Shown here: one piece after another, positions 712-48,138 of the stretch
Layout of the letters: every line of letters starts with the position of its first letter
How positions within the stretch are numbered: the first letter of the stretch is position 1
NCBI GenBank assembly: GCA_964639595.1
Contig: CAZXEC010000001.1
Coordinates: forward strand, 326,903 to 390,902
Length of the DNA: 64,000 nt
Direction: 5' to 3'
From: an uncultured Gammaproteobacteria bacterium
GTDB lineage: Bacteria; Patescibacteriota; Microgenomatia; CAZXEC01
Translations under genes and position numbers: made by a program
The notes under the pieces: model-generated
Databases searched by the model: none
What the model was told of the DNA's origin: nothing
What the model saw: only the letters and a program-made list of their open reading frames with translations

Positions 712-1671
712 ATGAAATATATTATAGTGGGATTTGGTAATATTGGCCATAAAAGGCAGGCTATTTTAGGCCCTAGGTGTATTGCCACGGTTGACCCGGA
801 TCCCAGGACTAAAGCTGATTTTGCCGATTCATCACAAGTTCCAAGAAGCTTAATAGACGAATGCCGGGCGGTCATAGTGGCAGTGCCCCGCCAGCCTAAA
901 CTAGAACTGGTGGAATATTGGCTGTTGCGCAGCAAGCATGTGCTGGTGGAAAAACCTGTAGTCATTACCAAAACTCAAGCCAAGAGACTACAAAGTATAG
1001 CCAGAAAAAATAAGGTGATCTGGTATACGGCCTACAATCATCGGTTTGAGCCCAATATTGCCAGAATTAAAAAATTATTAGCCAAAAAAACCATTGGTAA
1101 ACTGTATCATGGCCAAATTGCTTATGGTTTTGGCAACGTGAAAGAACTTAAAAAAACCTGGCGGGAAACCGGCTACGGGGTTTTAGATGAAGTCGGTTGT
1201 CATTTGGTTGATTTTGCGCACTGGTTTTATGGGTATAGAGCGGAAGATTTTCGAGGGGAGAGATTTGGCAGTAATGAATTATCAGTCTGGGATTATTGTA
1301 CTTTTGGCACGACAGACGGTAAATTAATTGCAGAAGCCAGTTGGGTAACTTGGAAAAATTCTTTTTCCATAGAGTTTTTTGGCAGCTTGGGATCAATACA
1401 TCTGAGCGGATTGTGCAAATGGGGTACGAGTCGCTTGACTATTAGAACTAGGATTTTCCCCGCCGGAGTGCCCATAGAGAAAATTTTTGTCGAGAAAGGA
1501 CCGGACCAGACTTGGACAAAAGATCTGAAGTATTTTGAAAATCAGGTTAGGCAAAATAAAACAACGTATGATAACGATTTGGTCACCAGCCAAGCTTTAG
1601 TAAATATAGCCAAAAGCCTTGACCAGAAATTAAAAAACGAACAAGTGTATAAGAAACTTAAGGGATTATGA
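712..1671 (+). CDS. Gfo/Idh/MocA-family NAD(P)-dependent oxidoreductase, probably a sugar dehydrogenase
   Basis: N-terminal Rossmann motif IIVGFGNIGHKR and a 319 aa length; ATG start with an upstream AGGT. Confidence 0.65.
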   Translation: MKYIIVGFGNIGHKRQAILGPRCIATVDPDPRTKADFADSSQVPRSLIDECRAVIVAVPRQPKLELVEYWLLRSKHVLVEKPVVITKTQAKRLQSIARKNKVIWYTAYNHRFEPNIARIKKLLAKKTIGKLYHGQIAYGFGNVKELKKTWRETGYGVLDEVGCHLVDFAHWFYGYRAEDFRGERFGSNELSVWDYCTFGTTDGKLIAEASWVTWKNSFSIEFFGSLGSIHLSGLCKWGTSRLTIRTRIFPAGVPIEKIFVEKGPDQTWTKDLKYFENQVRQNKTTYDNDLVTSQALVNIAKSLDQKLKNEQVYKKLKGL

Positions 1672-2978
1672 ACAAAATTTCCAAAATAGCCTTTGTTGGC
1701 CTGTCTCATTTGGGACTGGTCACCTCCATCTGCACAGCATCCAAACATAGTAATGTAATTGGACTAGATACTGATGCTTTGCTGGTATCTTCCCTAAAAA
1801 AAGGAAAGCTTCCCGTGTATGAGCCTGGATTAGATAAATTGTTGGGAAAGGTAGAAAAAAGAATCAGTTTTTCAAATGATTTCTCTCAACTGGCATCATG
1901 TGATGTAGTTTTTTTTGCTCAAGATACGGCCACCGACGGCTCCGGGTCAGTAGATAAATTAAACAGGTTAGTTAGTTTGTCCCTGCCATATTTTAAGCCG
2001 CGCGCGCAACTTATTTTTATCAGTCAAGTGCCGGTGGGATATTACAGGCAACTGGTACGTGATATAAAAAAGAAAAAGCCGAAGTTGAAGTTTTCCCTTT
2101 ATCACTGGATTGATACATTAATTATGACCCAAGCCATAGCCAGCTTCTTGACACCATCCCGCATCATCATTGGCATGGCAGATCCAAAAAAGCCGGTCGA
2201 TGATAAATTAAAAATTATCCTGAATTGGTTTGACTGTCCGGTTTTTTACATGTCCTATGAGAGCGCTGAAGTTACTAAAGCGGCCATCAATCTATATCTG
2301 GCTACCAGTGTCACTTATGCCAACACAGTGGCTGACTATTGCGAAGCAGTGGGTGCCAATATTTATGAAATAATCCCGGCGCTGGCAACTGACAGGCGGA
2401 TAGGCCAATTTGCCTATATCAGGCCGGGTTTGAAAATTGCCGGAGGCCATCTGGAAAGAGATCTGCTCATGCTGTCAAGATTAGCAAAAAAAGCCCAGAT
2501 TAACTCCGGAGTAGTTGATTTTATTATTAAATATGACCGACGCAGATTTGGCTGGCTGAAGAAGCAGTTAAATAATCATTTGCTGTCAAAAACCAAAATG
2601 CCGAAAATCTGCATCTGGGGCTTATCATATAAACCCAACTCGGCATCACAAACTGGAGCGATATCGCAACTGGTAATAAAATACTTAAAAGGAAAAGCTG
2701 GCTTGGCAGTTTATGATCCCCAGGCCAAATTATTGGAAAATATTAATTGGGCTGTTCAATATCGCAACAAATGGCAGGCCCTGAAGAGGGCTGACTGTTT
2801 GATAATACTGACGCCTTGGGATGAATTTAAGACGGTCAAGATATCTAATATTGTCAAAAAAATGAAAGATAAATTAGTTATAGATCCAACAGGTTTATAT
2901 GCGGATCGGGAAAAAGAGTTAGATAAATTGCGCTATTTCTCATTAGGCTTCTCAAACCAGGATTTATCGATCTCATAG
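1668..2978 (+). CDS. Nucleotide-sugar dehydrogenase (UDP-glucose/GDP-mannose 6-dehydrogenase family)
   Basis: N-terminal KIAFVGLSHLGLV NAD-binding motif, a central dimerisation region, and a C-terminal GLSYKPNSASQTGA resembling GLAFKPNTDD. The start overlaps the upstream stop as ATGA. Confidence 0.8.
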   Translation: MNKISKIAFVGLSHLGLVTSICTASKHSNVIGLDTDALLVSSLKKGKLPVYEPGLDKLLGKVEKRISFSNDFSQLASCDVVFFAQDTATDGSGSVDKLNRLVSLSLPYFKPRAQLIFISQVPVGYYRQLVRDIKKKKPKLKFSLYHWIDTLIMTQAIASFLTPSRIIIGMADPKKPVDDKLKIILNWFDCPVFYMSYESAEVTKAAINLYLATSVTYANTVADYCEAVGANIYEIIPALATDRRIGQFAYIRPGLKIAGGHLERDLLMLSRLAKKAQINSGVVDFIIKYDRRRFGWLKKQLNNHLLSKTKMPKICIWGLSYKPNSASQTGAISQLVIKYLKGKAGLAVYDPQAKLLENINWAVQYRNKWQALKRADCLIILTPWDEFKTVKISNIVKKMKDKLVIDPTGLYADREKELDKLRYFSLGFSNQDLSIS

Positions 2979-4588
2979 ACTACGGCGTTATTATCAAAGG
3001 TCTTGATATGTGTGAGGGGCGGCCCCACTTGAGATGGATCAAACATGAACAACAAGTCTTGTTCCTGAATGTCACGATCAACTAACACGTAATCAACCCC
3101 GAATTCCTTAATTTGCCTTACGACCACCTCGTACCCGTAGCCGGAAGTGGTATGAGGAAAATATATTATTTCGCCGTCGGCATACCAGGCGTAGCCTTCT
3201 CTTCTGGTCATGATCTTGGGTCTGTTGATGGTGGTATAGTTTTTGATCCATTCGCCCTGTTCTTTAATTTGAGGGATTGAAGACAGCGATGGTACGCCGG
3301 GTTTTAGATCACCATATATTAAAGCGATGTTATTCTTGGCAATTACAAAAATGATAACTATTATCACCAAAGGCTGCCAGATTATCTTCATGGGTTTTGG
3401 TAAAAACATGCCAGCTACTTGCCAGATGGCATATACTCCCCATCCCTGCAAGATTAAAAGTACTGGCATGAGCCATAATACGTACCTGTCAACTACGCCT
3501 TGGGAGATCATCATCAGAAGAATAAATTGCGGTAGGATGTTGGCCATCAAATAAATAGTAAATTTGTCTTTGATGACAATTAATGAGGCTACTGCTCCGA
3601 TTAGAATAAGGTATATATAAAAACCCTGGAAAAATTGGGAGAGTAACCTCATATTAGCTAAAAATTTATCCCAGGCGCTGGAGATTAAAGCATCCCTACC
3701 TTTCCATAGCTTGGAAGATAGTGAGACTCCGTAAAATTCAGAGTTGAGATTGGGGTGGTCTATTGACCAGGCATCTTGGGCCAGGTTAGAAGACCCATCA
3801 GATGTCACCGTGGTCACATGAGCCGGACCAAAAGCCAGTGCTGCTTTTACTGGTGACAAAACCGGCCGCTCCGCTCTAATTGATAATGTCCCCAAGTATG
3901 GAAGTAAAACAATATTGAAAATAAGGAACATGATCACTAAATTACGAATAACCCGGACCCCTTTTGTTTTTACGATGAAGAGTTGATATATAAAAAAGAG
4001 AACAAGAAAGGTATAAAAAATAGATTGCGTCTCTTGCCTGGTCCAGTAGGTTAAACCAAAGAAAGTTGGCGCCAGCAGCAGATAAAACCACTTTTTGCTT
4101 GTCAGAGCCAAGTATCCCAGAAAAAAAGAGCAATAAAGAAAAAAAACATATTGGTGCTCTGTGAGGGCAACAATAGATGATGTATGAAAAATAGGAAACG
4201 TGGCAATCATTATTGACATGATGAGGCCTATCTTCCAGGATGCGTACCTGGCGAAAAATATGTAGGTGGCGATAGGAAGCAAGAAGCTAAAAATTGCCGG
4301 GACCAGTCTGGCGGCAAATTCCCAATTATTAAAAAAGCTATAGGTAATAGCCATAACTAATGGGTATCCCCCTGGCCAATAGAGATGAACAATTTTGTAA
4401 TACTCGCCTTGCAAAAACCTTTTGGCCATGGTGGCATAGATGGCATCATCGCTGTAGAAAATAAGTTCTTGGGATTTGATAGCTGCTAATTTAATATCAA
4501 AAATCCAGATCGCCATTGCCGCCACAACGACAAATGACAAAAACGGCAGGATATTTTTTCTGATAAATACTTTTCTTAAAAATAACAT
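2933..4588 (-). CDS. GT-C fold membrane glycosyltransferase, ArnT/PMT-like (GT39/GT83-like)
   Basis: More than 10 predicted TM helices. The first extracytoplasmic loop carries YSDDAIY, analogous to the DExxY of ArnT, followed by a W-PGGYPL motif. A ~150 aa soluble C-terminal domain follows. It is a paralog of 28724..30328. Confidence 0.6.
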   Translation of the reverse strand: MLFLRKVFIRKNILPFLSFVVVAAMAIWIFDIKLAAIKSQELIFYSDDAIYATMAKRFLQGEYYKIVHLYWPGGYPLVMAITYSFFNNWEFAARLVPAIFSFLLPIATYIFFARYASWKIGLIMSIMIATFPIFHTSSIVALTEHQYVFFLYCSFFLGYLALTSKKWFYLLLAPTFFGLTYWTRQETQSIFYTFLVLFFIYQLFIVKTKGVRVIRNLVIMFLIFNIVLLPYLGTLSIRAERPVLSPVKAALAFGPAHVTTVTSDGSSNLAQDAWSIDHPNLNSEFYGVSLSSKLWKGRDALISSAWDKFLANMRLLSQFFQGFYIYLILIGAVASLIVIKDKFTIYLMANILPQFILLMMISQGVVDRYVLWLMPVLLILQGWGVYAIWQVAGMFLPKPMKIIWQPLVIIVIIFVIAKNNIALIYGDLKPGVPSLSSIPQIKEQGEWIKNYTTINRPKIMTRREGYAWYADGEIIYFPHTTSGYGYEVVVRQIKEFGVDYVLVDRDIQEQDLLFMFDPSQVGPPLTHIKTFDNNAVVYEIDKSWFEKPNEK

Positions 4589-4594
4589 GGATGA

Positions 4595-5473
4595 CTATTT
4601 CTTATACAATTTAGGTTTGTAGCCGATCGATACGGTTTGCAGGCTGAAGAATCTCATCAGACTGGAATGGTCAAGCAAGGTTGCAATAAAAACAAGAGGC
4701 CGAACAATCGCATTATCCCAAATAAACCTGTAAATACCGTAGATATTTTTCCATTCCATAAAAAGATCCATATATCTAACCAGACGGGGGAAAATGATCA
4801 TTCCAGTTATTTTAATATTAACAAATCCGGCATTTTCCAACCATTTCTTTTGCTCCCAAGGGAAAAAAGACGGTTCATAACTAGTAACATTTTTCAAAAC
4901 TCTGTTAAAAAGCTCATTAATAAAATATGCCAACCACATATCTAATTTGTTATTAACTCCACTGATAAAAATACCTCCTGGTGTTAAGACCCTGAATGCT
5001 TCTTTCACTGCCTGTTCATTTTCCCTAATATGCTCGATAGTACCATAGCTAAAAACAATATCGAAATAATTGTCCGGAAATGGTAACTGGCGGACATCAC
5101 CTATCAAAAATTTAGCAGTGTCGGTTTTCGATCTAAAGTTCCTTTTGGCTAGTCTGATTACTGCCGGTGAAATGTCTATTCCGTAGTAATCACATCCTTG
5201 TGATAAAAACCAATCTGCCAGTGTAGTTGTACTCATGGCTTCATTGTAAAGATCATATTTTAGGACTTTGAGGCCTGTTTTATGTGGTAGGTAAATTTTA
5301 AGTAACCTTACAATTGATTGGACGAAATATAAATCAGATAGGGTTGGTTTGGTGATGTGTTTATGGGGGCTATTTTTGACAACCTCATCCCATCTTTTGG
5401 CCAGTGTCCTATTAACCTCGTCCCAGTTATTGAAAAAATCTGACTTATTGTAGGTGCCTGTTTTTTTTGTCAT
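4595..5473 (-). CDS. Class I SAM-dependent methyltransferase
   Basis: Motif I is DYYGIDISPAVIRLAK, and the later LTPGGIFIS matches the Methyltransf_11/25 pattern. Confidence 0.7.
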   Translation of the reverse strand: MTKKTGTYNKSDFFNNWDEVNRTLAKRWDEVVKNSPHKHITKPTLSDLYFVQSIVRLLKIYLPHKTGLKVLKYDLYNEAMSTTTLADWFLSQGCDYYGIDISPAVIRLAKRNFRSKTDTAKFLIGDVRQLPFPDNYFDIVFSYGTIEHIRENEQAVKEAFRVLTPGGIFISGVNNKLDMWLAYFINELFNRVLKNVTSYEPSFFPWEQKKWLENAGFVNIKITGMIIFPRLVRYMDLFMEWKNIYGIYRFIWDNAIVRPLVFIATLLDHSSLMRFFSLQTVSIGYKPKLYKK

Positions 5474-5480
5474 GAGGGTA

Positions 5481-6791
5481 TTATAGTAAGAGCTTGTTCA
5501 GCAGATCGTTTGGTGTTTCGGCTTGCCTGATGATTTTTATTTGTTGATTGGAGCTGACGAAAACCACAACTGGTCTAAGAATTGTAAACTGGTTTGAACG
5601 TGTTAGAGAATAAGCCCCGGCATCTAAAACTAAAACTATATCTCCCACTGCCATTTCGGGTAATTTCTGATCTGTTGCCAAAACATCGGCAGTATTGAGT
5701 GTGGGCCCGGCGATGTTGTAGCGACGGGTAGGTTTTCGATGGGCTTTATTGGCAATAATAAATCCCCGCCTAATAAAAAATATACTCTCTGGTACCAAAT
5801 TAATTCCACCATCTATAAAAATCCAATCCTTTTTGACAGCCACTACTCGAGTTACCAAGATGCCAGTATCAGAAACTAAAAATCTTCCCGGTTCCAACAC
5901 TAACTCTATTTCAGGTAGGTGATAATTATTGAGCATTTCCCTGAATTTAGTTCCGATTTTTTTACCAAATTCTTCAATCGACGGGGCTTTACTGTATTGA
6001 GATATTCCAGCCTTGTTCAAGATGATATTTTGCAGTGAATAATAATTAAGGCTCTGTAATCCGTATCCGCCGCCGATATTGATAGTTTTAATACTAAGTC
6101 CTAACTGGTCTCTAAGTCTGGCTGCTAAGGTAACTAATCTTTCGATGGACTTTTGGTAGTAGGATGGATCGGTAATCATTGAGCCAATATGGCTGGAGAT
6201 AGCCATCGGTTGCACATGAGAATAGGAAAGAGCCTTGCTATAAGCATCAACCGCTTGGGAAATGGGAATTCCGAATTTACTGATATAACCCTCGATAAAG
6301 CTTTTTAATATTGACATTTTTAACTCTGGATAAATTCTAAAGCTGATGTTGACCTTAATGTCTAATTTTTGGGCAATTTTGGCAACTCTTGCCAAAAGAT
6401 CTAAAGAGTCCACATTAAAAACTGCAACTCCTTTTTTAATGCAGAAGGCAATTTCCTGATCGTTCCAAGCCGGGCCATCAATAATCAATTCAGAAGCATC
6501 AAAGCCTGCTTTTTGAGCAAGGAGTACCTCTAGTGCCGAAGCTATTTCTCCTCTGCTGCCTTGGGATCTGAGAGTCTTGAGTATTTGAGGTTCAAAATTA
6601 GTTTTTACCGAATAGTAGATGCTAGTTTTTCTGTAATATTTTTGGAAAGCGGCAGATAGTGCGTGGTAATTATCAATTAATCTTTTTTCGCTAAACAAAA
6701 AAAATGGAGTACCGAATTTCTTGATCAGCTTGTCTAGCGGAACGCCATCGAATTTAACCTTATCCTGCACCAAATTAACACCGCTGATCAT
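5481..6791 (-). CDS. Fold-type III PLP-dependent decarboxylase (Orn/DAP/Arg decarboxylase family), substrate unknown
   Basis: N-terminal TPFFLFSEKRL resembles TPLYVYD. The PLP-lysine motif YYSVKTN, the Gly-rich NIGGGYG and the C-terminal LEPGRFLV are all present. Confidence 0.75.
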   Translation of the reverse strand: MISGVNLVQDKVKFDGVPLDKLIKKFGTPFFLFSEKRLIDNYHALSAAFQKYYRKTSIYYSVKTNFEPQILKTLRSQGSRGEIASALEVLLAQKAGFDASELIIDGPAWNDQEIAFCIKKGVAVFNVDSLDLLARVAKIAQKLDIKVNISFRIYPELKMSILKSFIEGYISKFGIPISQAVDAYSKALSYSHVQPMAISSHIGSMITDPSYYQKSIERLVTLAARLRDQLGLSIKTINIGGGYGLQSLNYYSLQNIILNKAGISQYSKAPSIEEFGKKIGTKFREMLNNYHLPEIELVLEPGRFLVSDTGILVTRVVAVKKDWIFIDGGINLVPESIFFIRRGFIIANKAHRKPTRRYNIAGPTLNTADVLATDQKLPEMAVGDIVLVLDAGAYSLTRSNQFTILRPVVVFVSSNQQIKIIRQAETPNDLLNKLLL

Positions 6792-7795: not shown

Positions 7796-7875
7796 AGAAA
7801 GGATCGGATAAACAGACGGTAGCATAGACAACTGTCACAAGCAAGTCAATCTGTTGTAAAATGTCTTAAAATAAG

Positions 7876-10029
7876 ATGTTTGGTAAACAAGCAAAACTCG
7901 CGTCTGGTAATCTGGCTTTGGTTATAATACTATTTTTGGCCGCCCTGGTGAGGTTTTACGGCCTTTTTCCCAATACTCTTCTTCATCCTGATGAACCGCA
8001 TTTGCTCGCGTCAGGACAGAAAATTGCCAAAAATGTTTTAACTAATTTTGATTTCTCTGCCGATGTCTCGCAGTATCCTTATAAATACGGTTCCTCCATG
8101 TATTATCTGCATGGTGCGCTGCAGACAGGTGCGTTATTAGGTATTTATGCTTTGCATTCCTTGTTGCCTCATTTGTTGGAAAATTTTCCGCAAAAATCAG
8201 ATCTTTTGACTTTCTTGACTGACACAGGACTATATAATTACCAAAATTTGCTTTTGACCGAATCGCGGCTGGTGACCGCTTTATTTGGTATAGGAACAGT
8301 GCTGTTGACTTTTTTGATCGGCAGGAGATTATTTGGCTATCCAGTGGGTATTCTGGCTGCGCTTATATTAACATTTGCACCACTGCATGTACGAGATTCC
8401 CACTATGCCACCGTTGATATTCCGCAATTATTTTTCATTCTCTTATCAGTATTTTGGCTAATTAAAGTTTTTCAGACAGGTAAAACTAGATTCTATTTAT
8501 TGGCAGGCTTGACCATTGGTTTTGCCACTTCTTTGAAGTATTTCCCCATTGCTGTGTTGCTTTACCCCTTGGCGCATTTTTTGGGTGCTGGCCGGCAAAA
8601 ATTATTAGACCAAAAATTTTGGCTGGGATGGGCTATGATGCCCATTGGTTTTTTGGTCAGTTCACCTACTCTACCTTTCCATTTTGGAGATTTTTTGAAT
8701 ACCCTCATTATTAGCAGTCAATGGTATGCCCCAGGGGTGGTTTCTGCCAAAATCCACTGGTGGCAGTTTTTCATTCCCCCTTATGTTCATCCTTTTCATT
8801 GGTCATTTGTATTTTTTATCGGATTTGGGGTGATGCCAACATTGTTGGCTATTTGGGGATTTATTATTGCTTGGAAACAGCATCCCCGACCGATGCTTTT
8901 CTTATCAGTAGTGCCGGTTGTTAATTTTATCTTCATCACTTTTTATCTTAAAGAAATTTATGAAAGATTATCTTTGCCCAGCCTGCCATTTTTAGCATTA
9001 TTTGCCGGTTATGGCTTATGGCAGCTGGTGCGATGCGTCAAGCCGGACAAGTTGAAAGCGGTGGTATTAACGATGACACTGGGAGTTGTTTTGTTTTATC
9101 CGGCTCAAGAATCGATCTCTGCCAGCTGGGCTTGTTCTCAGGAGATTACCGATTATCAAGCCCGGGATTGGATCAAGGATAATATCGCACCGGGATCTAC
9201 TTTTGGTTTTTCTCCGGGTATGCGCATTCCAGAAACTGGTACCAAGCCAGTCAGAATGGATGTGACATCGATGTTCTCTTGGCCAGAAGCAGAGGAAGCA
9301 GGTGTGAATTTGGTGTTTTTTAATTCCGGTTATTATAATTATTATCAGTATTGGGCGCTTGATTATTTTAGTCGTCCAGAAGATCTTCTTGCCAACAGTT
9401 TTGTGGGAGCGGCACTTCGCCAGTATCAAACACAATCCCAGCTGGTTAAAAAATTTGTCAAGCCTTACACCTGCATGGGTAATGATATTTACGCCTATAG
9501 GCTGGCAAAACTTTTACAGCCCGGCAGTCGCCATTTGATTTATCAAGACTCTTGGGAAAAAAGCAGCCAGGAATGGCGGTTGGTGGAATTTCCTGTTTTT
9601 GGTCAACAACAAGCTCTTTTGAGTACCAATTCTAATGATTTAGTGTTTACTTGGCAACGTGGCGCTGACAAGATGTGGGAAAAGAATAGCTATCCCACGC
9701 CGCGAGCAGTGGTTGGCCCCTTCCCGGTTACACCGGGCAAGATGTATTTTTTACAAGCTCGACTGTCATCAGGTAAAGAAATTCCTAAAGAAAAACGTGA
9801 TGGCTTCTTTAGAATAGATTTCTATAAACAGCGAAGTATTGGTAACAAGCCAGGTTTTGATGTTGCTTTATCTGGGCGCTATTGGGGTCAGGGAGAAAAA
9901 ACTGTCCAAACCCAAGCAGTTGCTCCACCTGGCGCTGTTTTTGCCACCCTGTCTTTTCAGACAACAATGGTAGAAGAAAAAGGTGATTTTCGCATAAGCC
10001 AAGTGCAATTTTTCCAAATGGAAGACTAA
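7876..10029 (+). CDS. GT-C membrane glycosyltransferase (PMT_2/ArnT-like) with a C-terminal CBM-like beta-sandwich domain
   Basis: LHPDEPHLL acidic loop motif, HVRDSHYATVDIPQLFF, and more than 10 TM helices. The ~200 aa C-terminus (WVK..FFRIDFYKQ..ATLSF..QVQFF) resembles a CBM4/9-type domain. Paralog of 10807..12996. Confidence 0.6.
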   Translation: MFGKQAKLASGNLALVIILFLAALVRFYGLFPNTLLHPDEPHLLASGQKIAKNVLTNFDFSADVSQYPYKYGSSMYYLHGALQTGALLGIYALHSLLPHLLENFPQKSDLLTFLTDTGLYNYQNLLLTESRLVTALFGIGTVLLTFLIGRRLFGYPVGILAALILTFAPLHVRDSHYATVDIPQLFFILLSVFWLIKVFQTGKTRFYLLAGLTIGFATSLKYFPIAVLLYPLAHFLGAGRQKLLDQKFWLGWAMMPIGFLVSSPTLPFHFGDFLNTLIISSQWYAPGVVSAKIHWWQFFIPPYVHPFHWSFVFFIGFGVMPTLLAIWGFIIAWKQHPRPMLFLSVVPVVNFIFITFYLKEIYERLSLPSLPFLALFAGYGLWQLVRCVKPDKLKAVVLTMTLGVVLFYPAQESISASWACSQEITDYQARDWIKDNIAPGSTFGFSPGMRIPETGTKPVRMDVTSMFSWPEAEEAGVNLVFFNSGYYNYYQYWALDYFSRPEDLLANSFVGAALRQYQTQSQLVKKFVKPYTCMGNDIYAYRLAKLLQPGSRHLIYQDSWEKSSQEWRLVEFPVFGQQQALLSTNSNDLVFTWQRGADKMWEKNSYPTPRAVVGPFPVTPGKMYFLQARLSSGKEIPKEKRDGFFRIDFYKQRSIGNKPGFDVALSGRYWGQGEKTVQTQAVAPPGAVFATLSFQTTMVEEKGDFRISQVQFFQMED

Positions 10030-10778
10030 TGTCTAATAAACTTGCAGTTTACGATCGAAATCAACATGAACAGGAGTTTTTTGATCAGCTGGCAAAAGAT
10101 AATTGTGAATACTGGGGTTGCCAAACAAAGGCCGGTTGCTATCGGATGGAGATGAGAGCGCAACTGGCCCAGCGATTCTTGGGGTTGTGTCCGGGGATGA
10201 AAATATTGGATCTAGGGTGCGGGTTAGGCGCCTTTACTCAATATTTGTTACCGTATGCTGCCACCATCTATGCTATTGATATTTCCTCTGCCACCATCGC
10301 CCAAGTTAAGATGAGAATTTCATCACTGAATGTTATCTTTTCTGTCCAAGATGCCCATCACTTAAGCTTTGCAGATAATTTTTTTGATGCGGTGGTAGGG
10401 AATGCGACCCTGCATCATCTGGATTTATCTTGCGCTTTGCTAGAAATTCAGCGAGTGGTCAAACCGCATGGTCAGATATTTTTTACCGAGCCAAATATGG
10501 CAAATCCACAAAATTGGCTTGAGAGACATGTTAGATTTATTGGTAAACTCATGCGCAACTCGCCGGATGAAACTGCTTTTTATCGCTGGCAATTGAAAAA
10601 AAAATTGAAGGCGGCAGGTTTTATCAATGTATCAGCTGAACCATTTGATTTTATCTATCCGGCGATCCCTGAAGCCTGGATTGGTCCGGTAAAAAAGATG
10701 TCGGATTTCTTAGAGAAAATTCCTTTGTTGAGAGAAATTGCCGGTTCACTGTTGATAACCGGACAAAAAGAGCGGTAA
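10029..10778 (+). CDS. Class I SAM-dependent methyltransferase
   Basis: ILDLGCGLGAF motif I and VKPHGQIFFTEPN. Confidence 0.75.
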   Translation: MSNKLAVYDRNQHEQEFFDQLAKDNCEYWGCQTKAGCYRMEMRAQLAQRFLGLCPGMKILDLGCGLGAFTQYLLPYAATIYAIDISSATIAQVKMRISSLNVIFSVQDAHHLSFADNFFDAVVGNATLHHLDLSCALLEIQRVVKPHGQIFFTEPNMANPQNWLERHVRFIGKLMRNSPDETAFYRWQLKKKLKAAGFINVSAEPFDFIYPAIPEAWIGPVKKMSDFLEKIPLLREIAGSLLITGQKER

Positions 10779-10806: not shown

Positions 10807-12996
10807 ATGGCAAAATTATCGAATGGAAAAAAGAAATTCTGGACCTTCCTAAAATACCACTGGATGCTGATTAGCATTCTTATTTTGGCTGGCATTCTCC
10901 GCCTTATCGGCCTTTTCCCGAATACTCTCTTACATCAAGACGAACCAGCTCTTTTGGGTCCTTCCCAAAAACTGCTGGAGCAAATCTTATTCCAAGCTAA
11001 TTTTGATCCCAACATTCCCCCCCAACCTTTCAAGTATGGCTCTTTTCTCTATTATCTGCATGCTCTAATTCATGGGGTAGTACTATCAGTTATCTATTTA
11101 TATGAACTGGCATTGCATAAGCTGACGATTTATTCTGCGATGTATAAAGACCAGGTTGATTATTGGCAATTTATTACTAATACGGGACTAGCCAATTATC
11201 GTGATGTCTTGTTATGGTTTGATCGGGCCTCCGGGGCGCTGTTTGGCGTTGCTAGCGTTTGGCTCACCTATTTGATAGGGAAGCAGCTGTTCTGTCAACG
11301 ACTGGGACTTTTGGCAGCATTACTTTTAGCAGTTAACCCCCTCCATGTTCGCGAATCTCATTATGCCACAGTTGACGTTCCCCAGCTATTTTTTATTTTG
11401 CTGTCTTTCCTGTTTTCATTTTTTGTGTTGAAGAAACCTAGTGTCAAGTGGTTTGCCTGGGCTGGTTTTATGGCGGGATTCACCACTTCCATAAAATATT
11501 TCCCCTTGGCACTGTTGCCGCTTTTTTTCTTTCATTTACTCAATATAAAAAAACCTCAAGATATCTATCAGATAGCGAGAAATTTAGTTGTTTCTCTTGT
11601 TTTTGTCTGGTTAGGTTTTTGGGCAGGATCGCCATATTTACCGTTTCATTTTAAAGAAGTTACAGAAATTTTACAGATACATGCTAATTACTACGGTTCA
11701 GATAAATATAATCAACCGAATCTGATCACCAATTTCCTGCCGACCAGTGCCCATTTCTTCCATATCGGGTTTCTGATTGATGAAGCTTATCTGGCCCTGC
11801 CACTTGCAGCTACCATAGTTGGAGTTGTGATGAGTATTTTATCTTTTGGCCGTTTGGCAATTACTCTTTTGGTTATTCCTCTGGTTAACTTTCTGATTAT
11901 TTTTGGCTATGTGGCTCCCATTTATGAGAGATTGCTTTTGCCTGGTATTCCCTTTATGGCCCTATTCAACGCTGTCTTTTTAGATAAAGCTCTTGGCTGG
12001 TTAAGATTGAAGTTTACCGTTACTGGTTTGGTGATGGGCTTGTTATTGATCGTAGCGACTATTGGGCCTTCACTTCAAAAGTCCCTGGCAGCCAGCCTAG
12101 CCTGTGGTCAACCAATTGCCGACTATGCGGCCCGTGATTGGATCAAACAGCATTTTGCTCTCGGAACCAGATTAGCTTATCAACCAGGGATACGCATCCC
12201 GGAAATTGGTCTGGATTTAATCCGATCAGAGATAGCAACCAGTTTTTCTTTAATGGAATTGCAAGAACAACCAGCCGAATATCTGATTATTACTTCGGGT
12301 TACTTAGATCGCTTTAAGGAATGGGCGGCTGATTTTCCAGTGACTCCGGTTGAGGAGATCAACAATCTCTATCCGGTTTTAGTTTTCCAAGAATACCAAA
12401 AAACAACCCAGCTAGTGCAGGAGTTTGTCAAACCATCCCTGTGTGTAGATAACCGGATTTACATTTTTAAATTATTTCCCATTTTAGGAAGAGTCAATAA
12501 TAAAATCAAGCAGTTTTCATTTATGGAAGCAGGCGAACTTTCAGATTGGCGCTTGGTATCTTGGCCAAGTAGCAGACAGCACGCGGTGATCAGTTTTGTT
12601 GCCAGAGGACATGATGGTGCCGGCGCCTTGCGTTATCATTTTCCTCACTCGAATCTGAATCCTACTGATTTAGTTGTTGCCGAACCGATTTTTTCTCCCA
12701 TGATGGAAATAACAGGGGGCGCCAGATACAGTGCTTCTGCCTGGGTAAAGCCTGAAGTGGTACTATCGGATAGTATCTCTGATGGCTTTGTCAGATTAGA
12801 TTTTTATGATCAGCTACAAGGGCAACCTATTGCGACTGCCTTGTCTTCAAGGGCTCGGCCAAATTCTCAATGGCAGGAATTAGTGGTAACAGCCACCGCT
12901 CCCAAAGGAGCCAGATTCGCCACTGTCGGATTTGGCAGTTTTAATCCGTATCAAGCGGGCAGTTTTTTGATTGATGAGGTAAAATTAGCTAATTAG
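10807..12996 (+). CDS. GT-C membrane glycosyltransferase (PMT_2/ArnT-like) with a C-terminal CBM-like domain; paralog of 7876..10029
   Basis: LHQDEPALL and HVRESHYATVDVPQLFF are conserved with the upstream paralog. The C-terminus reads AWVK..FVRLDFYDQ..ATVGF..IDEVKL. Confidence 0.6.
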   Translation: MAKLSNGKKKFWTFLKYHWMLISILILAGILRLIGLFPNTLLHQDEPALLGPSQKLLEQILFQANFDPNIPPQPFKYGSFLYYLHALIHGVVLSVIYLYELALHKLTIYSAMYKDQVDYWQFITNTGLANYRDVLLWFDRASGALFGVASVWLTYLIGKQLFCQRLGLLAALLLAVNPLHVRESHYATVDVPQLFFILLSFLFSFFVLKKPSVKWFAWAGFMAGFTTSIKYFPLALLPLFFFHLLNIKKPQDIYQIARNLVVSLVFVWLGFWAGSPYLPFHFKEVTEILQIHANYYGSDKYNQPNLITNFLPTSAHFFHIGFLIDEAYLALPLAATIVGVVMSILSFGRLAITLLVIPLVNFLIIFGYVAPIYERLLLPGIPFMALFNAVFLDKALGWLRLKFTVTGLVMGLLLIVATIGPSLQKSLAASLACGQPIADYAARDWIKQHFALGTRLAYQPGIRIPEIGLDLIRSEIATSFSLMELQEQPAEYLIITSGYLDRFKEWAADFPVTPVEEINNLYPVLVFQEYQKTTQLVQEFVKPSLCVDNRIYIFKLFPILGRVNNKIKQFSFMEAGELSDWRLVSWPSSRQHAVISFVARGHDGAGALRYHFPHSNLNPTDLVVAEPIFSPMMEITGGARYSASAWVKPEVVLSDSISDGFVRLDFYDQLQGQPIATALSSRARPNSQWQELVVTATAPKGARFATVGFGSFNPYQAGSFLIDEVKLAN

Positions 12997-13002
12997 AGAC
13001 TA

Positions 13003-13857
13003 ATGATTTCTATTATTGTCAGTACTAAAAATGAAGAAAAAAACCTGGAGAGGCTGCTTGCCAGTATTAAAAACCAGACCTACCAGGATTGGGAAGTTAT
13101 AGTGGTGGATAATAATTCTTCTGATCAAACCAAAGCAATTGCCCAGAAGTACACCCCTTTGGTTTTCAATTATGGTCCGGAAAGATCGGCCCAGAGAAAT
13201 TTTGGAGCAAAACAAGCCAGAGGCGAGTACGTCTTAATTTTAGATGCTGATATGGAACTGGAGGAAAATGTTTTGGCAGAGTGTGCAGAGGTAGTTGGCT
13301 CCGATAAATCCCGATTTAATCGGGATAAAATCGGAGTTGACAAAACTTCTACCTTAAAAGCCCTGATTGTTCCGGAAAGGTCGACATCGCAAAATTTTTG
13401 GGGCCGCTGCAAAGCGTACGAAAGGTCATTTTATGTGGGAGACGAGACCATTGAGGCGGCCCGTTTTTTCAACAGGCAAATTTTTGACCAACTGGGTGGT
13501 TATGACACTGCCATGACCGGGCCGGAAGATTATGACCTGTCGTATCGGGTCAGGCAAAAATATCAGATAGGGAGAATCGGCTCTTTTATCATTCATCATG
13601 AAGGAGCGCCTAGTTTATGGCAATTGATGAAGAAAAAGTTTTATTATGCTAAACATGCCAAGGCCTATTACGCAAAATACCCTGGTTTAAGATTATCCCA
13701 GGGCAACCTGCTGCTGCGTCCGGCTTTTATTAGAGGATGGATGAAACTGATTTCTCATCCGGTCTTGACCCTCGGTCTGGTGATCATGCGTAGTTGCGAG
13801 ACAGCAGGAGCCCTGGCGGGGTTTTTGCTAAGTGGTACAGTTAAGATGAAGAATTAA
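13003..13857 (+). CDS. Glycosyltransferase family 2
   Basis: ISIIVSTKNEEKNL..VIVVDNNSSD and a DAD (DXD) motif. Confidence 0.75.
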   Translation: MISIIVSTKNEEKNLERLLASIKNQTYQDWEVIVVDNNSSDQTKAIAQKYTPLVFNYGPERSAQRNFGAKQARGEYVLILDADMELEENVLAECAEVVGSDKSRFNRDKIGVDKTSTLKALIVPERSTSQNFWGRCKAYERSFYVGDETIEAARFFNRQIFDQLGGYDTAMTGPEDYDLSYRVRQKYQIGRIGSFIIHHEGAPSLWQLMKKKFYYAKHAKAYYAKYPGLRLSQGNLLLRPAFIRGWMKLISHPVLTLGLVIMRSCETAGALAGFLLSGTVKMKN

Positions 13858-17078: not shown

Positions 17079-17837
17079 ATGACAAAAAGTAAAAAATTAA
17101 GTTCTACAAAATATCAAACAACATCGCCAACAAAAACAAACCATAACTTCTATCAGCAGATAAGGGATCTCTATGCAATGATAAAGCAAGCCCCGGATAC
17201 TGCCAATCAGGAGCTTAATCAGGAACATATCAGCCTGGCGCAGGACTATCGCCGGAACTTTTATAGCTATTTTGGCGGACTGAAACACTTTAAAAATAAA
17301 AATGTTTTGGAAATTGGTTGCGGTTATGGGGGAGACAGCGCTCTCATTGCCGAAGTGGCTAAAAAAGTAGTCGGTACTGATCTTAACAAGGATCAACGTT
17401 GGGAAATTTGGCAGAAAACCAATATGATATTTGCCAAAGAAAATGCCCAGAGTTTGTCATTTGCCAGCCAGAGTTTTGATGTAGTTTGTGCCCGTGATGT
17501 TTTGCATCATGTCGATTACCCATCACTGGCTATCAAAGAGATGGGTCGGGTTGTCAAAAAAGGCGGCAAGATAATTATTATTGAAGCCAACAGATACAAC
17601 CCCATATTTTATTTACATTTAACATGTCTTTTAGGGCATGATCATTTTACCCAAAACAAATTTATGGAGTTGGTCAGAAATAATTTTGACCAAGTGGAAT
17701 TTTTCTTTGTAGAAAGTCACTTCTTACCGATCAGAAACAAAATCTTCAGGTGGTGGTGGAATAGTGTTTGGAGTCTGGCTAACTTATTTCTGCCATCTTT
17801 TCTAAAATCATATAATGTAGCAGTAGCAACCAGATGA
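17079..17837 (+). CDS. Class I SAM-dependent methyltransferase
   Basis: VLEIGCGYGGDS motif I and VKKGGKIIIIEAN. The start is moved to the ATG at 17079; the track ORF begins inside the upstream gene. Confidence 0.7.
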   Translation: MTKSKKLSSTKYQTTSPTKTNHNFYQQIRDLYAMIKQAPDTANQELNQEHISLAQDYRRNFYSYFGGLKHFKNKNVLEIGCGYGGDSALIAEVAKKVVGTDLNKDQRWEIWQKTNMIFAKENAQSLSFASQSFDVVCARDVLHHVDYPSLAIKEMGRVVKKGGKIIIIEANRYNPIFYLHLTCLLGHDHFTQNKFMELVRNNFDQVEFFFVESHFLPIRNKIFRWWWNSVWSLANLFLPSFLKSYNVAVATR

Positions 17838-19636
17838 AAAAGAAATCTCTTTATTGTTTATCGATCCATTCCGGCCATGTGGCAGGTGCGGCCCTGTCTT
17901 GTGACGGGAAAATAGTCCAGTGTGTGTCAGAGGAGCGTTTCAACTGGCAAAAAAACTACCTGGGTTATCCCCGGCAAAGTATTGACTACGTCCTCACAGC
18001 CGCCGGCATCACAGCCGCCGATCTTGACTTGGTAGTTTTGCCTTCCAGATATGGGGCGCCTATTGTTTCCACCCAAGAAGTGCAAGCACAAATGGCCCTA
18101 ATATTATGGTTGTATAGACCAATTAATATTATCAGGCAACTGTGGGGAATCCTAGTGTATTACCTGCCGCCTTTATCAGGTATTGGCCGCCTGTTGTACA
18201 GGGTGATGGCCTATACCTTGGGCAGATATACTGCCAGCAAGGAAAAAAGTGTGATTGCCAAGCATTTACATATTCCCCGGGAGAAAATTATAGAATTGGA
18301 GCATCATTTCTCTCATGCTGCCACAGCTTACCTGGGCTCCCCTTTAAATAAGCAAACAGCCTTAGTTTTTACTTTGGACGGGGAAGGTGACTTGCTTTGT
18401 TCCAGCGTCTCAGTTGCCGAAGGCGGCAAAATTTGCCGAATTGCTGCAACTCCCCGGGAATACTCTTTGGGCTGGATGTATTATTACGTCACTAAATATT
18501 TTGGGATGAAGCCCAATGAGCATGAATATAAAGTCATGGGTCTGGCTCCTTATGCTAAAGATCGCGATGTTCAAAAAGTGTATGACCAGATCAAGGATAT
18601 TATTTATCTGAATCCTAAAAATAAACTTACTTTCAAGGCGAAATTCCATATGCAGAATATGGAATATTTTTTGAGGAAAAAAGTTTTCTGGGCTCGGTTT
18701 GATAATCTGGCCGGAGCCATCCAAAAACTTTTGGAAGATCGGGTAGTGGAGTGGATCAAAGAAGGCATTGCCGCCACCGGTATATCGACGGTAATTTTAT
18801 CCGGCGGGGTCTTCATGAATGTAAAAGCTAATCAAAAAATTGCCGAACTTGACGAGGTGAAGAAGATTTTTATTTTTCCCTCTTGCGGTGATGAGTCGCT
18901 GGCAATAGGAGCATGTTATGTTGGGTATCAAAGGTTGATCAAGCAGCAGGGCAGACAAGCCGATATTTGCCCCATTTCCGACTTATATCTGGGGCCAAGT
19001 TATTCTAACGAGGAGATTGAAAGGTTTTTAAAAAAAGAAAATTATTTTGCTAAATATACGATTGATAAACTGGAGAAAATCGAGGAGAGGGTTGCCCAGC
19101 TGCTGGCTCAAGGCCAGGTGGTTGGCCGCCTGTCAGGTAGAATGGAATGGGGGGCAAGGGCTTTGGGTAACAGATCGCTGTTGGCAAATCCCCAGGATCC
19201 GGATGTGGTGATGGTCTTAAATGAGCAGATGAAAGATCGTGATTTTTGGATGCCTTTTACTCCATCTGTTTTGGACAGATGTGCCCGCAACTATATTAAA
19301 AATCCCAAAAAGATATCTGCCCCATATATGATTATGACTTTTGATACAACCAAACTTGGTAAAAAAGACTTAAAGGCTGCTATTCATCCATATGATTTTA
19401 CTTGCCGGCCGCAAGTTTTAGAAAAATCATGGAACGTGAAATATTATAGCCTTATTGAAGCTTTTGAGAAGTTAACCGGCATTGGGGCGGTTTTGAATAC
19501 TTCGTTTAACCTACATGGTTTGCCAATAGTTTTAGGTCCCAGAGAAGCCATGTATGTTTTTGAAAATTCCGGCCTGGAATTTTTAGCCATGGAAAACTTC
19601 TTGGTTCGTAAATCTAGCCCAACACATGCCGAATAA
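17834..19636 (+). CDS. Carbamoyltransferase (NodU/CmcH/TobZ family), divergent N-terminus
   Basis: A 600 aa protein with the HH metal motif EHHFSHAATAY, a Kae1/YgjD-like N-domain and a C-terminal ...LNTSFN... motif. The start overlaps the upstream stop as ATGA. Confidence 0.75.
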   Translation: MKKKSLYCLSIHSGHVAGAALSCDGKIVQCVSEERFNWQKNYLGYPRQSIDYVLTAAGITAADLDLVVLPSRYGAPIVSTQEVQAQMALILWLYRPINIIRQLWGILVYYLPPLSGIGRLLYRVMAYTLGRYTASKEKSVIAKHLHIPREKIIELEHHFSHAATAYLGSPLNKQTALVFTLDGEGDLLCSSVSVAEGGKICRIAATPREYSLGWMYYYVTKYFGMKPNEHEYKVMGLAPYAKDRDVQKVYDQIKDIIYLNPKNKLTFKAKFHMQNMEYFLRKKVFWARFDNLAGAIQKLLEDRVVEWIKEGIAATGISTVILSGGVFMNVKANQKIAELDEVKKIFIFPSCGDESLAIGACYVGYQRLIKQQGRQADICPISDLYLGPSYSNEEIERFLKKENYFAKYTIDKLEKIEERVAQLLAQGQVVGRLSGRMEWGARALGNRSLLANPQDPDVVMVLNEQMKDRDFWMPFTPSVLDRCARNYIKNPKKISAPYMIMTFDTTKLGKKDLKAAIHPYDFTCRPQVLEKSWNVKYYSLIEAFEKLTGIGAVLNTSFNLHGLPIVLGPREAMYVFENSGLEFLAMENFLVRKSSPTHAE

Positions 19637-42233: not shown

Positions 42234-42315
42234 GTTAGGAGAATTATAGCATAGAGATGTTTTGCAGGTTTGAAAAATGTTAGCTGTGATGGTAGATTAG
42301 GTGATAGCTACTAGG

Positions 42316-48105: not shown

Positions 48106-48138
48106 CCATGTTGGATGTATTAATTGACCATAGAAAAT

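Follow-up and report, generated by a model that had tools for sequence, protein, structure and literature searches.

In the maturation of microcin C, MccD, an enzyme of class-I methyltransferase (MTase) fold, transfers an aminocarboxypropyl group from SAM, and the N-terminal fold-type III decarboxylase domain of MccE trims this group to aminopropyl (PMC10491745, PMC11350588). DokD is another characterised decarboxylase; its C387A variant keeps about 1% activity (PMC13294871), and the crystal of its C387S variant holds PMP and 4-guanidinobutanal, as far as PDB entry 9cpz describes it. We analysed one gene, 5481..6791, in a 64-kb stretch of DNA, hereafter the window. Its product is a true PLP enzyme of fold-type III, a member of the Orn/DAP/Arg-decarboxylase superfamily from Candidatus Daviesbacteria (CPR). 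It is not a diaminopimelate decarboxylase; it belongs to a separate, uncharacterised family that is paired almost constantly with an unusual SAM enzyme in cell-surface sugar clusters, and the family therefore probably adds a new amine-type decoration to a glycan.

Gene, fold and active site of the decarboxylase

According to the ORF list and its translation, the open reading frame spans exactly 5481..6791, starts with ATG and encodes 436 aa. The gene and its motifs are as follows.

5481..6791, minus strand: fold-type III PLP enzyme, 'LNT' family of LysA-like decarboxylases (Pfam, NCBIfam, homologues, AF2/Foldseek, trees)
5685..5711, minus strand: AGPTLNTAD motif; Leu365-Asn366-Thr367 replace Cys-Glu-Ser of LysA
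5775..5792, minus strand: PESIFF motif; Glu335 and Phe339 replace Arg and Tyr of LysA (I/V)RPxxY
6597..6617, minus strand: YYSVKTN motif with PLP-binding Lys63; family form YS[VA]KTN, LysA form YA.KAN

The protein matches Pfam Orn_Arg_deC_N (PF02784; E=5e-37, 128 bits against a gathering threshold of 23.4) and Orn_DAP_Arg_deC (PF00278; E=4e-15, 56.3 bits against 23), and it shows the two-domain arrangement of the superfamily, an N-terminal PLP-binding barrel and a C-terminal sheet domain. Its AlphaFold (AF2) model has a pLDDT of 88.8 and superposes on DapDC and DokD structures with Foldseek TM values of 0.80–0.86. An identical protein has been deposited from Ca. Daviesbacteria, and about 50 homologues share 51–67% identity with it. 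The ORF and its motifs are confirmed to be far beyond chance, and the fold-type III assignment made by the first-pass annotation is borne out by Pfam, fold and PLP-site residues.

The PLP site is complete: Lys63, the ring-stacking His201, the Gly-rich phosphate loop (Gly240–242), Glu300 and Arg303 of EPGR and the Tyr of GAY (Tyr394) are all kept, and Arg152 is also invariant across the family. NIGGGYG corresponds to residues 238–244 and EPGR to residues 300–303; like YYSVKTN and AGPTLNTAD, both had been read correctly before, as the translation confirms. Different from the PLP site, the substrate side is remodelled. The Arg and Tyr of LysA (I/V)RPxxY bind the distal carboxylate of DAP and, together with the Glu-Ser of CES, the L-end of DAP; no family member retains these DAP-specific residues (Arg, Tyr and Cys-Glu-Ser). 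The active-site Cys of GPxC(E/D), present in every characterised decarboxylase aligned (LysA, DokD, MccE, SbnH, FlvO/BtrK-like), is Leu365 in this protein, and the Leu is invariant in the family. The first-pass annotation was right that the Cys of DapDC/ODC is absent; it had taken that Cys for a substrate-specificity residue, whereas in the characterised relatives it is catalytic. Compared to DokD, Leu365 aligns with Cys387, Phe402 with Tyr430 and Glu335 with Asp356.

Relationship to LysA and other decarboxylases

The decarboxylase resembles LysA in its two-domain fold (TM 0.80–0.87) and PLP-binding residues; it is 25–33% identical to LysA, its best PDB matches are DapDC structures (2p3e, 1twi), and TIGR01048 (LysA) is its best-scoring NCBIfam model. 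A divergent housekeeping LysA would share these features. However, this reading is extremely improbable and already contradicted by score, residues, phylogeny and gene context: the TIGR01048 score of 277.5 bits is under the cutoff of 297.9, all DAP-specific residues are replaced across the family, the protein branches in a separate clade outside LysA, and the conserved partners of the family are SAM-enzyme, SDR and glycosyltransferase (GT) genes, never dap genes. A true LysA recovered in the same homologue search is fused to DapF. The 64-kb window and 21 kb of the contig contain no dap genes.

The family comprises about 70 clusters at 50% identity, with the signatures YS.KTN, PE[SN]xFF, GxxLN[TS]xD and GAYSxxR. 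In neighbour-joining trees it is monophyletic (74% bootstrap) and groups with DokD, the N-terminal domain of MccE and other non-LysA groups (88–98% bootstrap), apart from bacterial and archaeal LysA. MccE appeared as its sister group in the first tree; that relationship dissolved once DokD and more sequences were added, the sister group then being recovered with 19–28% bootstrap only, so we claim only a position outside LysA. Phylogeny against LysA and an active-site comparison on a predicted structure had been suggested as checks by the first-pass annotation, with LysA orthology and a full DAP site named as evidence against its proposal; the trees gave the non-LysA grouping, the model confirmed the decarboxylase fold with DAP-binding residues and Cys replaced, and no such orthology was found.

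A core-alignment search for related loci returned five family loci in genomes and nine in metagenomes; the generic VLDAGAY pattern accounted for the remaining matches, decarboxylase relatives whose identity did not exceed 30%. Below, L numbers label the loci compared and P numbers the proteins compared. The decarboxylase/SAM-enzyme pair spans CPR bacteria, Dependentiae, Dehalococcoidia and Gram-negative lineages, and the family is conserved with glycan genes in unrelated lineages. Literature searches on this family in glycan, O-antigen or CPR contexts, and on PDB entry 3WJ7 and Mur23/Mur24, gave nothing useful.

The other NCBIfam decarboxylase models score far below their cutoffs. NspC (TIGR01047; 28.8 bits, cutoff 409) and arginine decarboxylase SpeA (TIGR01273; 60.5 bits, cutoff 624) were rejected, and the FslC model reaches 130 bits against a cutoff of 500. 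The exosortase A-associated class (TIGR03099), to which the gene had been likened before, does not hold: the score is 159 bits against a cutoff of 478, and neither acyl-CoA ligase, ACP nor exosortase/PEP-CTERM genes were found in the 64-kb window. A BtrK/FlvO-type enzyme was likewise rejected, the adjacent ACP and ATP-dependent ligase being absent from the window and the family loci; P0069, the one protein seen with an ATP-grasp neighbour, lies outside the family.

Operon and glycan locus

The SDR, the decarboxylase, the SAM enzyme and a multi-pass membrane protein are encoded by one tight minus-strand operon (7795->2933), which sits inside a very large, 64-kb glycan locus. The features around the decarboxylase are listed below.

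712..1671, plus strand: GFO/IDH/MocA oxidoreductase, overlapping the next gene
1668..2978, plus strand: nucleotide-sugar 6-dehydrogenase (UGDH-like; Pfam, NCBIfam), 2.5 kb from the decarboxylase
2933..4588, minus strand: multi-pass membrane protein, 551 aa, last operon gene (PMT_2 E=2.7e-4, below cutoff)
4595..5473, minus strand: atypical class-I SAM-dependent MTase-fold protein, 292 aa (Pfam, orthologues, AF2)
5240..5254, minus strand: DLYNE motif, residues 74–78 of the SAM enzyme, replacing the GxGxG SAM-binding glycine loop
6806..7795, minus strand: extended SDR, NAD-dependent epimerase/dehydratase family (Pfam, NCBIfam, sequence)
7796..7875, no strand: divergent intergenic region between SDR operon and GT-C gene; sigma-70-like match TTGACT-17-TATGCT at 7849..7821 (minus strand)
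7876..10029, plus strand: GT-C gene, divergent from the SDR operon
13003..13857, plus strand: small GT2 (Pfam)

The decarboxylase lies between the MTase-fold gene and the SDR gene, as described before: the 3' end of the SDR gene is 14 nt upstream of it, the SAM-enzyme gene 7 nt downstream, and the membrane-protein gene follows the latter after 6 nt. The mechanical SDR ORF runs to a TTG at 7831; the start is likely the ATG at 7795 (329 aa), as in the NCBI gene call. The SDR has the YxxxK motif and lacks the dehydratase Glu. The first-pass annotation had placed the decarboxylase downstream of a same-strand GT-C gene. Because all four genes are on the minus strand, it is in fact upstream of the membrane-protein gene, and the GT-C gene 7876..10029 is divergent. 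The GT-C label of the membrane-protein gene itself is weakly based because its PMT_2 match is sub-threshold. Scans for promoters and terminators gave no enrichment over shuffles, the sigma-70-like element being a consensus match only, and no tRNA or Rfam features were found in the 64-kb window.

The partners of the decarboxylase recur to different degrees. The SDR is adjacent (L004, L016, L050, L053) or fused to it in about half of the loci, the fusions forming four clusters (P0169, P0170, P0175 and P0182); it is missing from the otherwise complete cassettes L044 and L055–L058. A small GT2 and a GT-C-type membrane protein often accompany the cassette: orthologues of the window GT2 (43–46%) stand directly beside it in the CPR loci L004, L016 and L053, GT2 genes also occur in L007, L019, L047 and L055, and large membrane or GT-C proteins take the same position in L004, L016, L007, L044 and L055. 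From its size and GT2 family only, the GT2 of the window is possibly a polyprenyl-phosphate glycosyltransferase. The gene pair 712..2978 is convergent on the minus-strand operon and may be context but does not belong to the conserved cassette; of about 20 loci, only 3 (the window, L047 and L048) have a UGDH-like gene near the cassette. The smallest operons read GT4-DC-MT-GT2-GT-C (L055) and DC-SDR-MT alone (L045). Canonical DegT aminotransferases are present in the same loci as the cassette.

That the decarboxylase is embedded in a glycan locus stands, and the gene is kept with glycan genes in unrelated lineages. Given a non-LysA fold-type III family, a glycan locus and a conserved glycan context, the general idea of an accessory, amine-forming decarboxylase put forward by the first-pass annotation is reasonable.

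The SAM-enzyme partner

The most informative partner, overlooked in the first-pass annotation, is the neighbouring 'MTase'. This atypical SAM enzyme stands beside the decarboxylase, or is fused to it, almost without exception. Its Pfam Methyltransf_11 match begins only after motif I, where DL[WY]NE is conserved in orthologues down to 33% identity; the adenosine-binding motifs (the GIDIS acid, the GDIR acid and motif III) are intact. The AF2 model has a pLDDT of 81. The DL[WY]NE enzyme is encoded directly downstream of, or fused to, the decarboxylase in 17 of 20 loci (the window, L004, L016, L007, L019, L044, L045, L047, L048, L008, L050 and L053–L058), at least 20 of 40 close SAM-enzyme homologues share a contig with decarboxylase homologues, and P0070 is a decarboxylase-MTase fusion. 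The two proteins are thus a near-obligate pair, sometimes fused, and they appear to work together.

The comparisons do not single out the SAM enzyme as specifically MccD-like. In phmmer, MccD is matched with E=1.3e-3 at about rank 35, no closer than ordinary methyltransferases. The Foldseek top 50 is dominated by phosphoethanolamine N-methyltransferases and does not include MccD; its E-values are nearly flat over many MTases, with TM only about 0.5. The hhalign comparison with MccD gives a probability of 91.8 over 94 columns, MccD not being the best match; it pairs the degenerate motif I of MccD (DLACSTG) with NEAxxT of the SAM-enzyme family, beyond which the similarity is generic. The link to MccD therefore stays an analogy.

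Possible reactions of the cassette

The decarboxylase/SAM-enzyme pair appears to be a self-contained tailoring unit that equips a sugar with an amino-alkyl (amine) substituent. The pair has no conserved ATP-dependent ligase beside it, none was found in the 64-kb window, and minimal operons exist; therefore, the amino-acid moiety needs an internal donor, and SAM is the only donor that the cassette provides. As in microcin C, a fold-type III decarboxylase is encoded beside a class-I MTase-fold SAM enzyme. By analogy, we tentatively favour aminocarboxypropyl transfer from SAM followed by decarboxylation in the MccD/MccE style, a scheme that we consider well possible, somewhat short of probable. 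SAM would donate a 3-amino-3-carboxypropyl group, and the PLP enzyme would then remove the alpha-carboxylate, leaving a 3-aminopropyl group on an aminoalkylated sugar. Glu335, which stands where LysA has Arg, would bind a distal group that is cationic or polar, and the new invariant Arg342 and Arg398 would bind the phosphate of the sugar carrier. Where present, the SDR would prepare or epimerise the sugar; the GT2 would put the modified sugar on polyprenyl phosphate, and the GT-C enzyme would deliver it outside. We infer the substrate, the acceptor and even the net decarboxylation by the PLP enzyme.

Several observations speak against aminopropylation. Ordinary methyltransferases are at least as close to the SAM enzyme as MccD is. 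The decarboxylase is only 23% identical to MccE (E=2e-21), which retains the catalytic Cys; both lie in the same broad radiation, with the sister branches at 19–28% bootstrap. If MTA is the by-product, an MTA nucleosidase or phosphorylase would be expected, and the loci examined showed neither. Fusion of SDR and decarboxylase points to consecutive steps, which the scheme explains poorly. To our knowledge, no aminopropylated bacterial glycan has been described.

Were the neighbour a true N-methyltransferase, the PLP enzyme would decarboxylate a tethered or free amino acid to an amine (for example, turning a serine-phosphate-type group into an ethanolamine-phosphate-type one, or a basic amino acid into a diamine), and methylation would give an N-methyl-amine or choline-like decoration. 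Phosphoethanolamine N-methyltransferases are indeed the best structural matches of the SAM enzyme and account for several of its better sequence matches, its adenosine-binding motifs are intact, and Glu335, at the DokD Asp356 position, is consistent with a substrate bearing a distal amine. However, those structural matches are the nearly flat ones described above, the pair has no conserved companion enzyme to join the amino acid or amine to a sugar, and the family-wide replacement of the methionine-end glycine loop by DL[WY]NE is unusual for a plain methyltransferase; we regard this course as unlikely. In the free-amine model of the first-pass annotation, a free amino acid would give an amine that is then coupled through an amide bond to the uronic acid made by the dehydrogenase 1668..2978. 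Amide-linked amines on glucuronate are known in Campylobacter capsules, the dehydrogenase is close by, and UGDH-like genes are near the cassette in L047 and L048. Yet a scan of 45 ORFs over the 64 kb, covering every ORF of 190 aa or more in the first 13 kb and of 150 aa or more thereafter, found no amide ligase of a known type (ATP-grasp, AsnB-like or other); most cassette loci lack UGDH, and the near-obligate SAM enzyme is left without a role, which makes the amide link very improbable.

The PLP enzyme might also act as a decarboxylation-driven aminotransferase: the quinonoid would be protonated at C4' to give PMP and an aldehyde, PMP would aminate a keto-sugar formed by the SDR, and N-methylation of the amino sugar would fall to the SAM enzyme, in an Arn-like series (Ugd/SDR, PLP enzyme, GT2, GT-C) with a non-homologous PLP enzyme. 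Protonation at C4' is suggested because Leu and Phe here take the places of DokD Cys387 and Tyr430, which may be the C-alpha proton donors; the DokD C387A activity and the PMP and aldehyde in the C387S crystal point the same way. The order SDR->PLP->MT and the SDR-PLP, PLP-MT and MT-PLP fusions would be consecutive steps, the stand-alone triad of L045 would be a complete pathway, and UGDH, GT2 and GT-C genes are nearby in the window. Against this, the SDR is missing from the five otherwise complete cassettes named above, canonical DegT aminotransferases occur in the same loci, and the scheme gives no reason for the atypical motif I of the SAM enzyme; we know of no member of the two-domain fold-type III decarboxylase group that is a transaminase. 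We consider this route quite unlikely. Its strictest version, that the family releases no amine, that decarboxylation of an amino-acid donor charges the cofactor to PMP, that the keto-sugar from the fused or adjacent SDR is aminated irreversibly and that the SAM enzyme N-methylates the product, is a long shot; if true, it would amount to an Arn-like route to amino sugars that uses a PLP fold not known to transaminate.

Significance and comparison with known systems

In public annotation, the decarboxylase is named 'alanine racemase' or 'diaminopimelate decarboxylase'. Either name would lead metabolic reconstructions of CPR bacteria astray, for instance by suggesting lysine biosynthesis that is not there. 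The unexplored family of about 70 clusters is without the Cys of every characterised relative aligned and is tied to a SAM enzyme with a remodelled cofactor loop. New chemistry in the cassette is likely. Whether by aminopropylation, amine methylation or decarboxylative amination, each product would be a cationic decoration of the surface glycan on ultra-small episymbiotic bacteria, for whose host attachment surface charge probably matters.

DokD (NF052544; PDB 6n2h, 8d88 and 9cpz) ranks among the best structural matches, belongs to the same non-LysA radiation (88%) and also carries an acidic residue at the Glu335 position. Different from DokD, the decarboxylase reaches 186 bits against the NF052544 cutoff of 700, has Leu and Phe for Cys387 and Tyr430, and lies in a glycan cassette, whereas DokD is encoded in an amino-acid catabolic operon (PMC13397332).

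BtrK/FlvO-type enzymes (aminoacyl-ACP), SbnH, FslC (citryl-amino acids) and the TIGR03099 enzymes belong to the same superfamily, and the scheme favoured here would share their general logic, in which the alpha-carboxylate is trimmed from an already attached amino acid. However, the SbnH and FlvO/BtrK-like representatives aligned keep the Cys that is Leu365 here, and the partners of these enzymes (ACP and adenylating enzyme, NIS synthetases, exosortase system) are absent from this locus.

The locus recalls Arn (aminoarabinose) and Gtr-type systems in combining a sugar dehydrogenase, an SDR, a PLP enzyme, a small GT2 and a GT-C transferase. The likeness is an analogy of architecture only: the PLP enzyme of Arn is a fold-type I aminotransferase (ArnB/DegT), that of the present locus is of fold-type III, and a SAM enzyme stands in place of the Arn formyltransferase.

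Like MccE and MccD (PMC10491745), the present pair combines a fold-type III decarboxylase with a neighbouring SAM enzyme of class-I MTase fold; motif I is degenerate in both SAM enzymes, and MccE belongs to the same non-LysA radiation. Unlike them, the decarboxylase has lost the Cys that MccE keeps, the gene order is reversed, and MccD is not the closest relative of the SAM enzyme. The context also differs: microcin C is made by a peptide-nucleotide antibiotic operon with MccA, MccB, MccC and MccF, whereas the pair described here is surrounded by glycan genes.

The PLP enzyme and its glycan locus

Four minus-strand genes, separated by gaps of 6–14 nt, include that of the PLP enzyme, the LysA-like decarboxylase under study.

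7795 to 6806, minus: SDR, first gene
6791 to 5481, minus: PLP enzyme, second gene; ATG start, 436 aa
6597..6617, minus: YYSVKTN motif of the PLP enzyme
5685..5711, minus: AGPTLNTAD motif of the PLP enzyme
5473 to 4595, minus: methyltransferase-fold protein (SAM enzyme), third gene
4588 to 2933, minus: multi-pass membrane protein, 551 aa, weak GT-C match (sub-threshold PMT_2)

The ORF of the PLP enzyme is real, and all the motifs quoted in the first-pass annotation were found in it: YYSVKTN, NIGGGYG (residues 238–244), EPGR (residues 300–303) and AGPTLNTAD. Its placement among the fold-type III PLP decarboxylases was borne out; both halves were matched in Pfam (PF02784, E=5e-37; PF00278, E=4e-15), and the AlphaFold model (pLDDT 88.8) matches the structures of diaminopimelate decarboxylases and of DokD, the D-Orn/D-Lys decarboxylase, with TM of 0.80–0.86. 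An identical copy was deposited from the Candidatus Daviesbacteria genome GCA_016198195.1 and goes by 'alanine racemase' at NCBI. The gene, said to lie downstream of a same-strand GT-C gene, is actually upstream of that membrane-protein gene, whose GT-C label is based on the sub-threshold PMT_2 match.

The remainder of the 64 kb is a single enormous glycan locus, so the PLP gene is indeed embedded in glycan genes. Besides many GT2, GT4 and methyltransferase genes and several further GT-C genes, the locus encodes a PglF-like dehydratase, a Wzx flippase, and two each of DegT aminotransferases and carbamoyltransferases. Both carbamoyltransferases (17834..19636 and 26597..28303) are of NodU/CmcH type, which suggests carbamoylated sugars; a third, orthologous one adjoins the cassette (the PLP gene and its partners) in locus L004. 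The genes of a GFO-type oxidoreductase (712..1671) and a nucleotide-sugar dehydrogenase (1668..2978) overlap by 4 nt in a WbpB/WbpA-like pairing, and the 3′ end of the latter overlaps the convergent membrane-protein gene (2933..4588) by 46 nt. A methyltransferase gene (10029..10778) is flanked by the genes of two paralogous GT-C (PMT/PMT_2) proteins (7876..10029 and 10807..12996), each of ∼720 aa and with a long soluble domain at the C-terminus. Three proteins of ∼900–950 aa (34865..37600, 37597..40455 and 42301..44988), paralogous to one another, each have an F5/8 type C (discoidin) domain at the C-terminus and otherwise no Pfam match; beyond them lie more large proteins (890–1047 aa), one with an AftD-like GT-C domain (48124..51267). 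In L001 (16122..20752, on the contig of the window and immediately before its position 1) and independently in L047 (1382..6060), the cassette is accompanied by a transaldolase and an NDP-heptose gene set (SIS_2/GmhA-like, kinase, HAD phosphatase and nucleotidyltransferase); from these genes, the sugar concerned may be a heptose.

Comparison with LysA and other decarboxylases

The top curated model for the PLP enzyme was TIGR01048 (lysA), with a score of 277.5 bits, below the cutoff of 297.9; the enzyme fell far under the cutoffs for DokD, the exosortase-associated class, FslC, SpeA and NspC. The alignment comprised 120 homologues and reference LysA, DokD (reconstructed from a Salmonella record), MccE, SbnH and a BtrK/FlvO-like enzyme. 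True LysA has YA.KAN, (I/V)RPxxY, GPxCE(S/T)GD and GAYG, whereas the PLP enzyme and its relatives have YS.KTN, PE[SN]xFF, G..LN[TS].D and GAYS..R. The Arg and Tyr of (I/V)RPxxY, which presumably hold the far carboxylate of DAP in LysA, are replaced by Glu335 and Phe339, and the LysA Cys-Glu-Ser by Leu365-Asn366-Thr367; Arg342 and Arg398 are new arginines, invariant in the family. With these replacements, DAP would not be bound in the LysA manner.

Cys387, Tyr430 and Asp356 of DokD align with Leu365, Phe402 and Glu335. The Cys had rightly been reported missing at first reading, Leu365 standing in its place, but it had been called a specificity residue and is really a catalytic one. DokD C387A retains ∼1% activity (PMC13294871), and the PDB entry of C387S holds PMP and an aldehyde; we therefore regard the family-wide loss of this Cys as mechanistically significant.

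In neighbour-joining trees (200–300 bootstraps), the family is monophyletic (63–74%) and lies inside a non-LysA radiation (88–98%) with DokD, the N-terminal domain of MccE and other uncharacterised groups. No well-supported immediate sister was recovered. Bacterial and archaeal LysA form a group apart, which places the family outside LysA.

Family members and conserved partners

When a profile was run against 1.84 billion cluster representatives, ∼70 of the 150 best matches were family clusters; true LysA, LysA-DapF fusions included, starts near 280 bits. Named members come from Daviesbacteria, Woesebacteria, other Patescibacteria, Dependentiae and Dehalococcoidia, and one further member lies on a contig bearing Gram-negative housekeeping genes. 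One subtype keeps the PLP-stacking His (HIGS); the other has Tyr (N[FV]Y.GT; e.g. P0092 and P0165). Seven representatives (P0057, P0070, P0080, P0084, P0162, P0164 and P0210) have QPGR for EPGR, whose Glu we take to correspond to E274 of ODC, touching the PLP pyridine nitrogen. Both replacements, Glu to Gln and His to Tyr, would be expected to make PLP a weaker or a different electron sink. One member (P0191, 576 aa) carries a fused N-terminal FHA (phosphothreonine-binding) domain. P0001 and P0019 are named 'alanine racemase' by NCBI, and relatives 'diaminopimelate decarboxylase' by JGI; these names appear to be mis-annotations from weak PF01168 or LysA similarity.

We surveyed 20 independent loci bearing a family member. 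In 17 of them, an orthologue of the window SAM enzyme (27–60% identity) directly follows the PLP gene, is one gene away or is fused to it; the exceptions are L015 (a 39-aa partner remnant only), L006 (a different methyltransferase) and L018 (none). In methyltransferases, the methionine end of SAM is normally cradled by a GxGxG loop. In the partner, a conserved (L/F)LK.DL[WY]NEA stands where this loop would be; motifs II and III and the acids that bind adenosine are intact. DL[WY]NE (window, 5240..5254) is present in every orthologue, down to ∼27–33% identity, and no match was found among described methyltransferase families. Roughly half of the loci have an SDR gene next to the PLP gene, and four clusters (P0169, P0170, P0175 and P0182) have the SDR as an N-terminal fusion partner of the PLP enzyme; P0070 is a PLP-methyltransferase fusion within the family, and methyltransferase-PLP fusions occur in neighbouring subfamilies. 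We infer a functional coupling of the PLP enzyme with the SAM-binding enzyme and, in many cases, with an SDR of the NAD-dependent sugar type.

Minimal arrangements are GT4, PLP enzyme, SAM enzyme, GT2 and GT-C in L055, and just PLP enzyme, SDR and SAM enzyme amid housekeeping genes in L045. Two genes upstream of the L055 operon lies a 762-aa protein (2113..4401) with LAGLIDADG and intein-splicing matches. A small GT2, by family and size a suspected polyprenyl-phosphate glycosyltransferase, recurs beside the cassette (L004, L016, L007, L019, L047, L053 and L055). The setting of the PLP/SAM pair is lipid-carrier-type glycan modification loci. In L046, the genes of an ATP-grasp ligase and FemAB-like transferases come after that of P0069, a related decarboxylase that lies outside the family and differs in its active-site motifs; it is a separate amino-acid-ligating variant on the same theme.

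Possible function of the cassette

Since the pair is not accompanied by any ligase, the donor of the amino-acid moiety would have to come from the cassette itself, and we infer that SAM is the only candidate there. The PLP enzyme would decarboxylate a SAM-derived amino-acid moiety on the sugar, and the aminoalkylated sugar would then be delivered by GT2 and GT-C. The logic is that of microcin C maturation, in which MccD adds the aminocarboxypropyl group of SAM and the fold-III decarboxylase domain at the MccE N-terminus trims it to aminopropyl (PMC10491745, PMC11350588). We favour this model by analogy because SAM is the sole candidate donor, MccE falls in the same radiation in the tree, and motif I of MccD is also degenerate, aligning with NEAxxT of the SAM-partner family (MccE and MccD from an mcc operon record). 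In a variant of this model, the PLP enzyme might decarboxylate SAM itself and its partner act as an aminopropyltransferase, as in 'route b', which is still a candidate for MccD/MccE. Against the favoured model, MccE keeps the Cys that the family lacks, no MTA-salvage gene was found near the cassette, and the SDR fusions are left unexplained.

The SAM enzyme is also at least as similar to phosphoethanolamine N-methyltransferases, which would suit decarboxylation followed by ordinary N-methylation of the resulting amine; with no attaching enzyme and an odd cofactor loop, we consider this rather unlikely. A decarboxylation-driven transaminase that aminates the keto-sugar of the SDR before N-methylation would account for all the fusions and the order of the genes as well as for the missing Cys and Tyr, but it lacks precedent for this fold and several loci do without an SDR, making it more doubtful still. 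The first-pass annotation had proposed an amine amide-linked to a uronic acid. A UGDH-like gene is close by, but the ORFs scanned across the 64 kb yielded no amide ligase, of ATP-grasp or any other type, and the SAM enzyme is given no role; this proposal is improbable. LysA provides the best curated model and the best PDB matches, but a LysA identity, contradicted by the TIGR01048 score, the replaced residues, phylogeny and genomic context, was rejected as scarcely credible.

No published description of the family was found in the literature. The PLP enzyme belongs to a known superfamily but to none of its characterised families, from which its own is set apart by the defining residue changes, the near-obligate atypical SAM partner and the glycan context.
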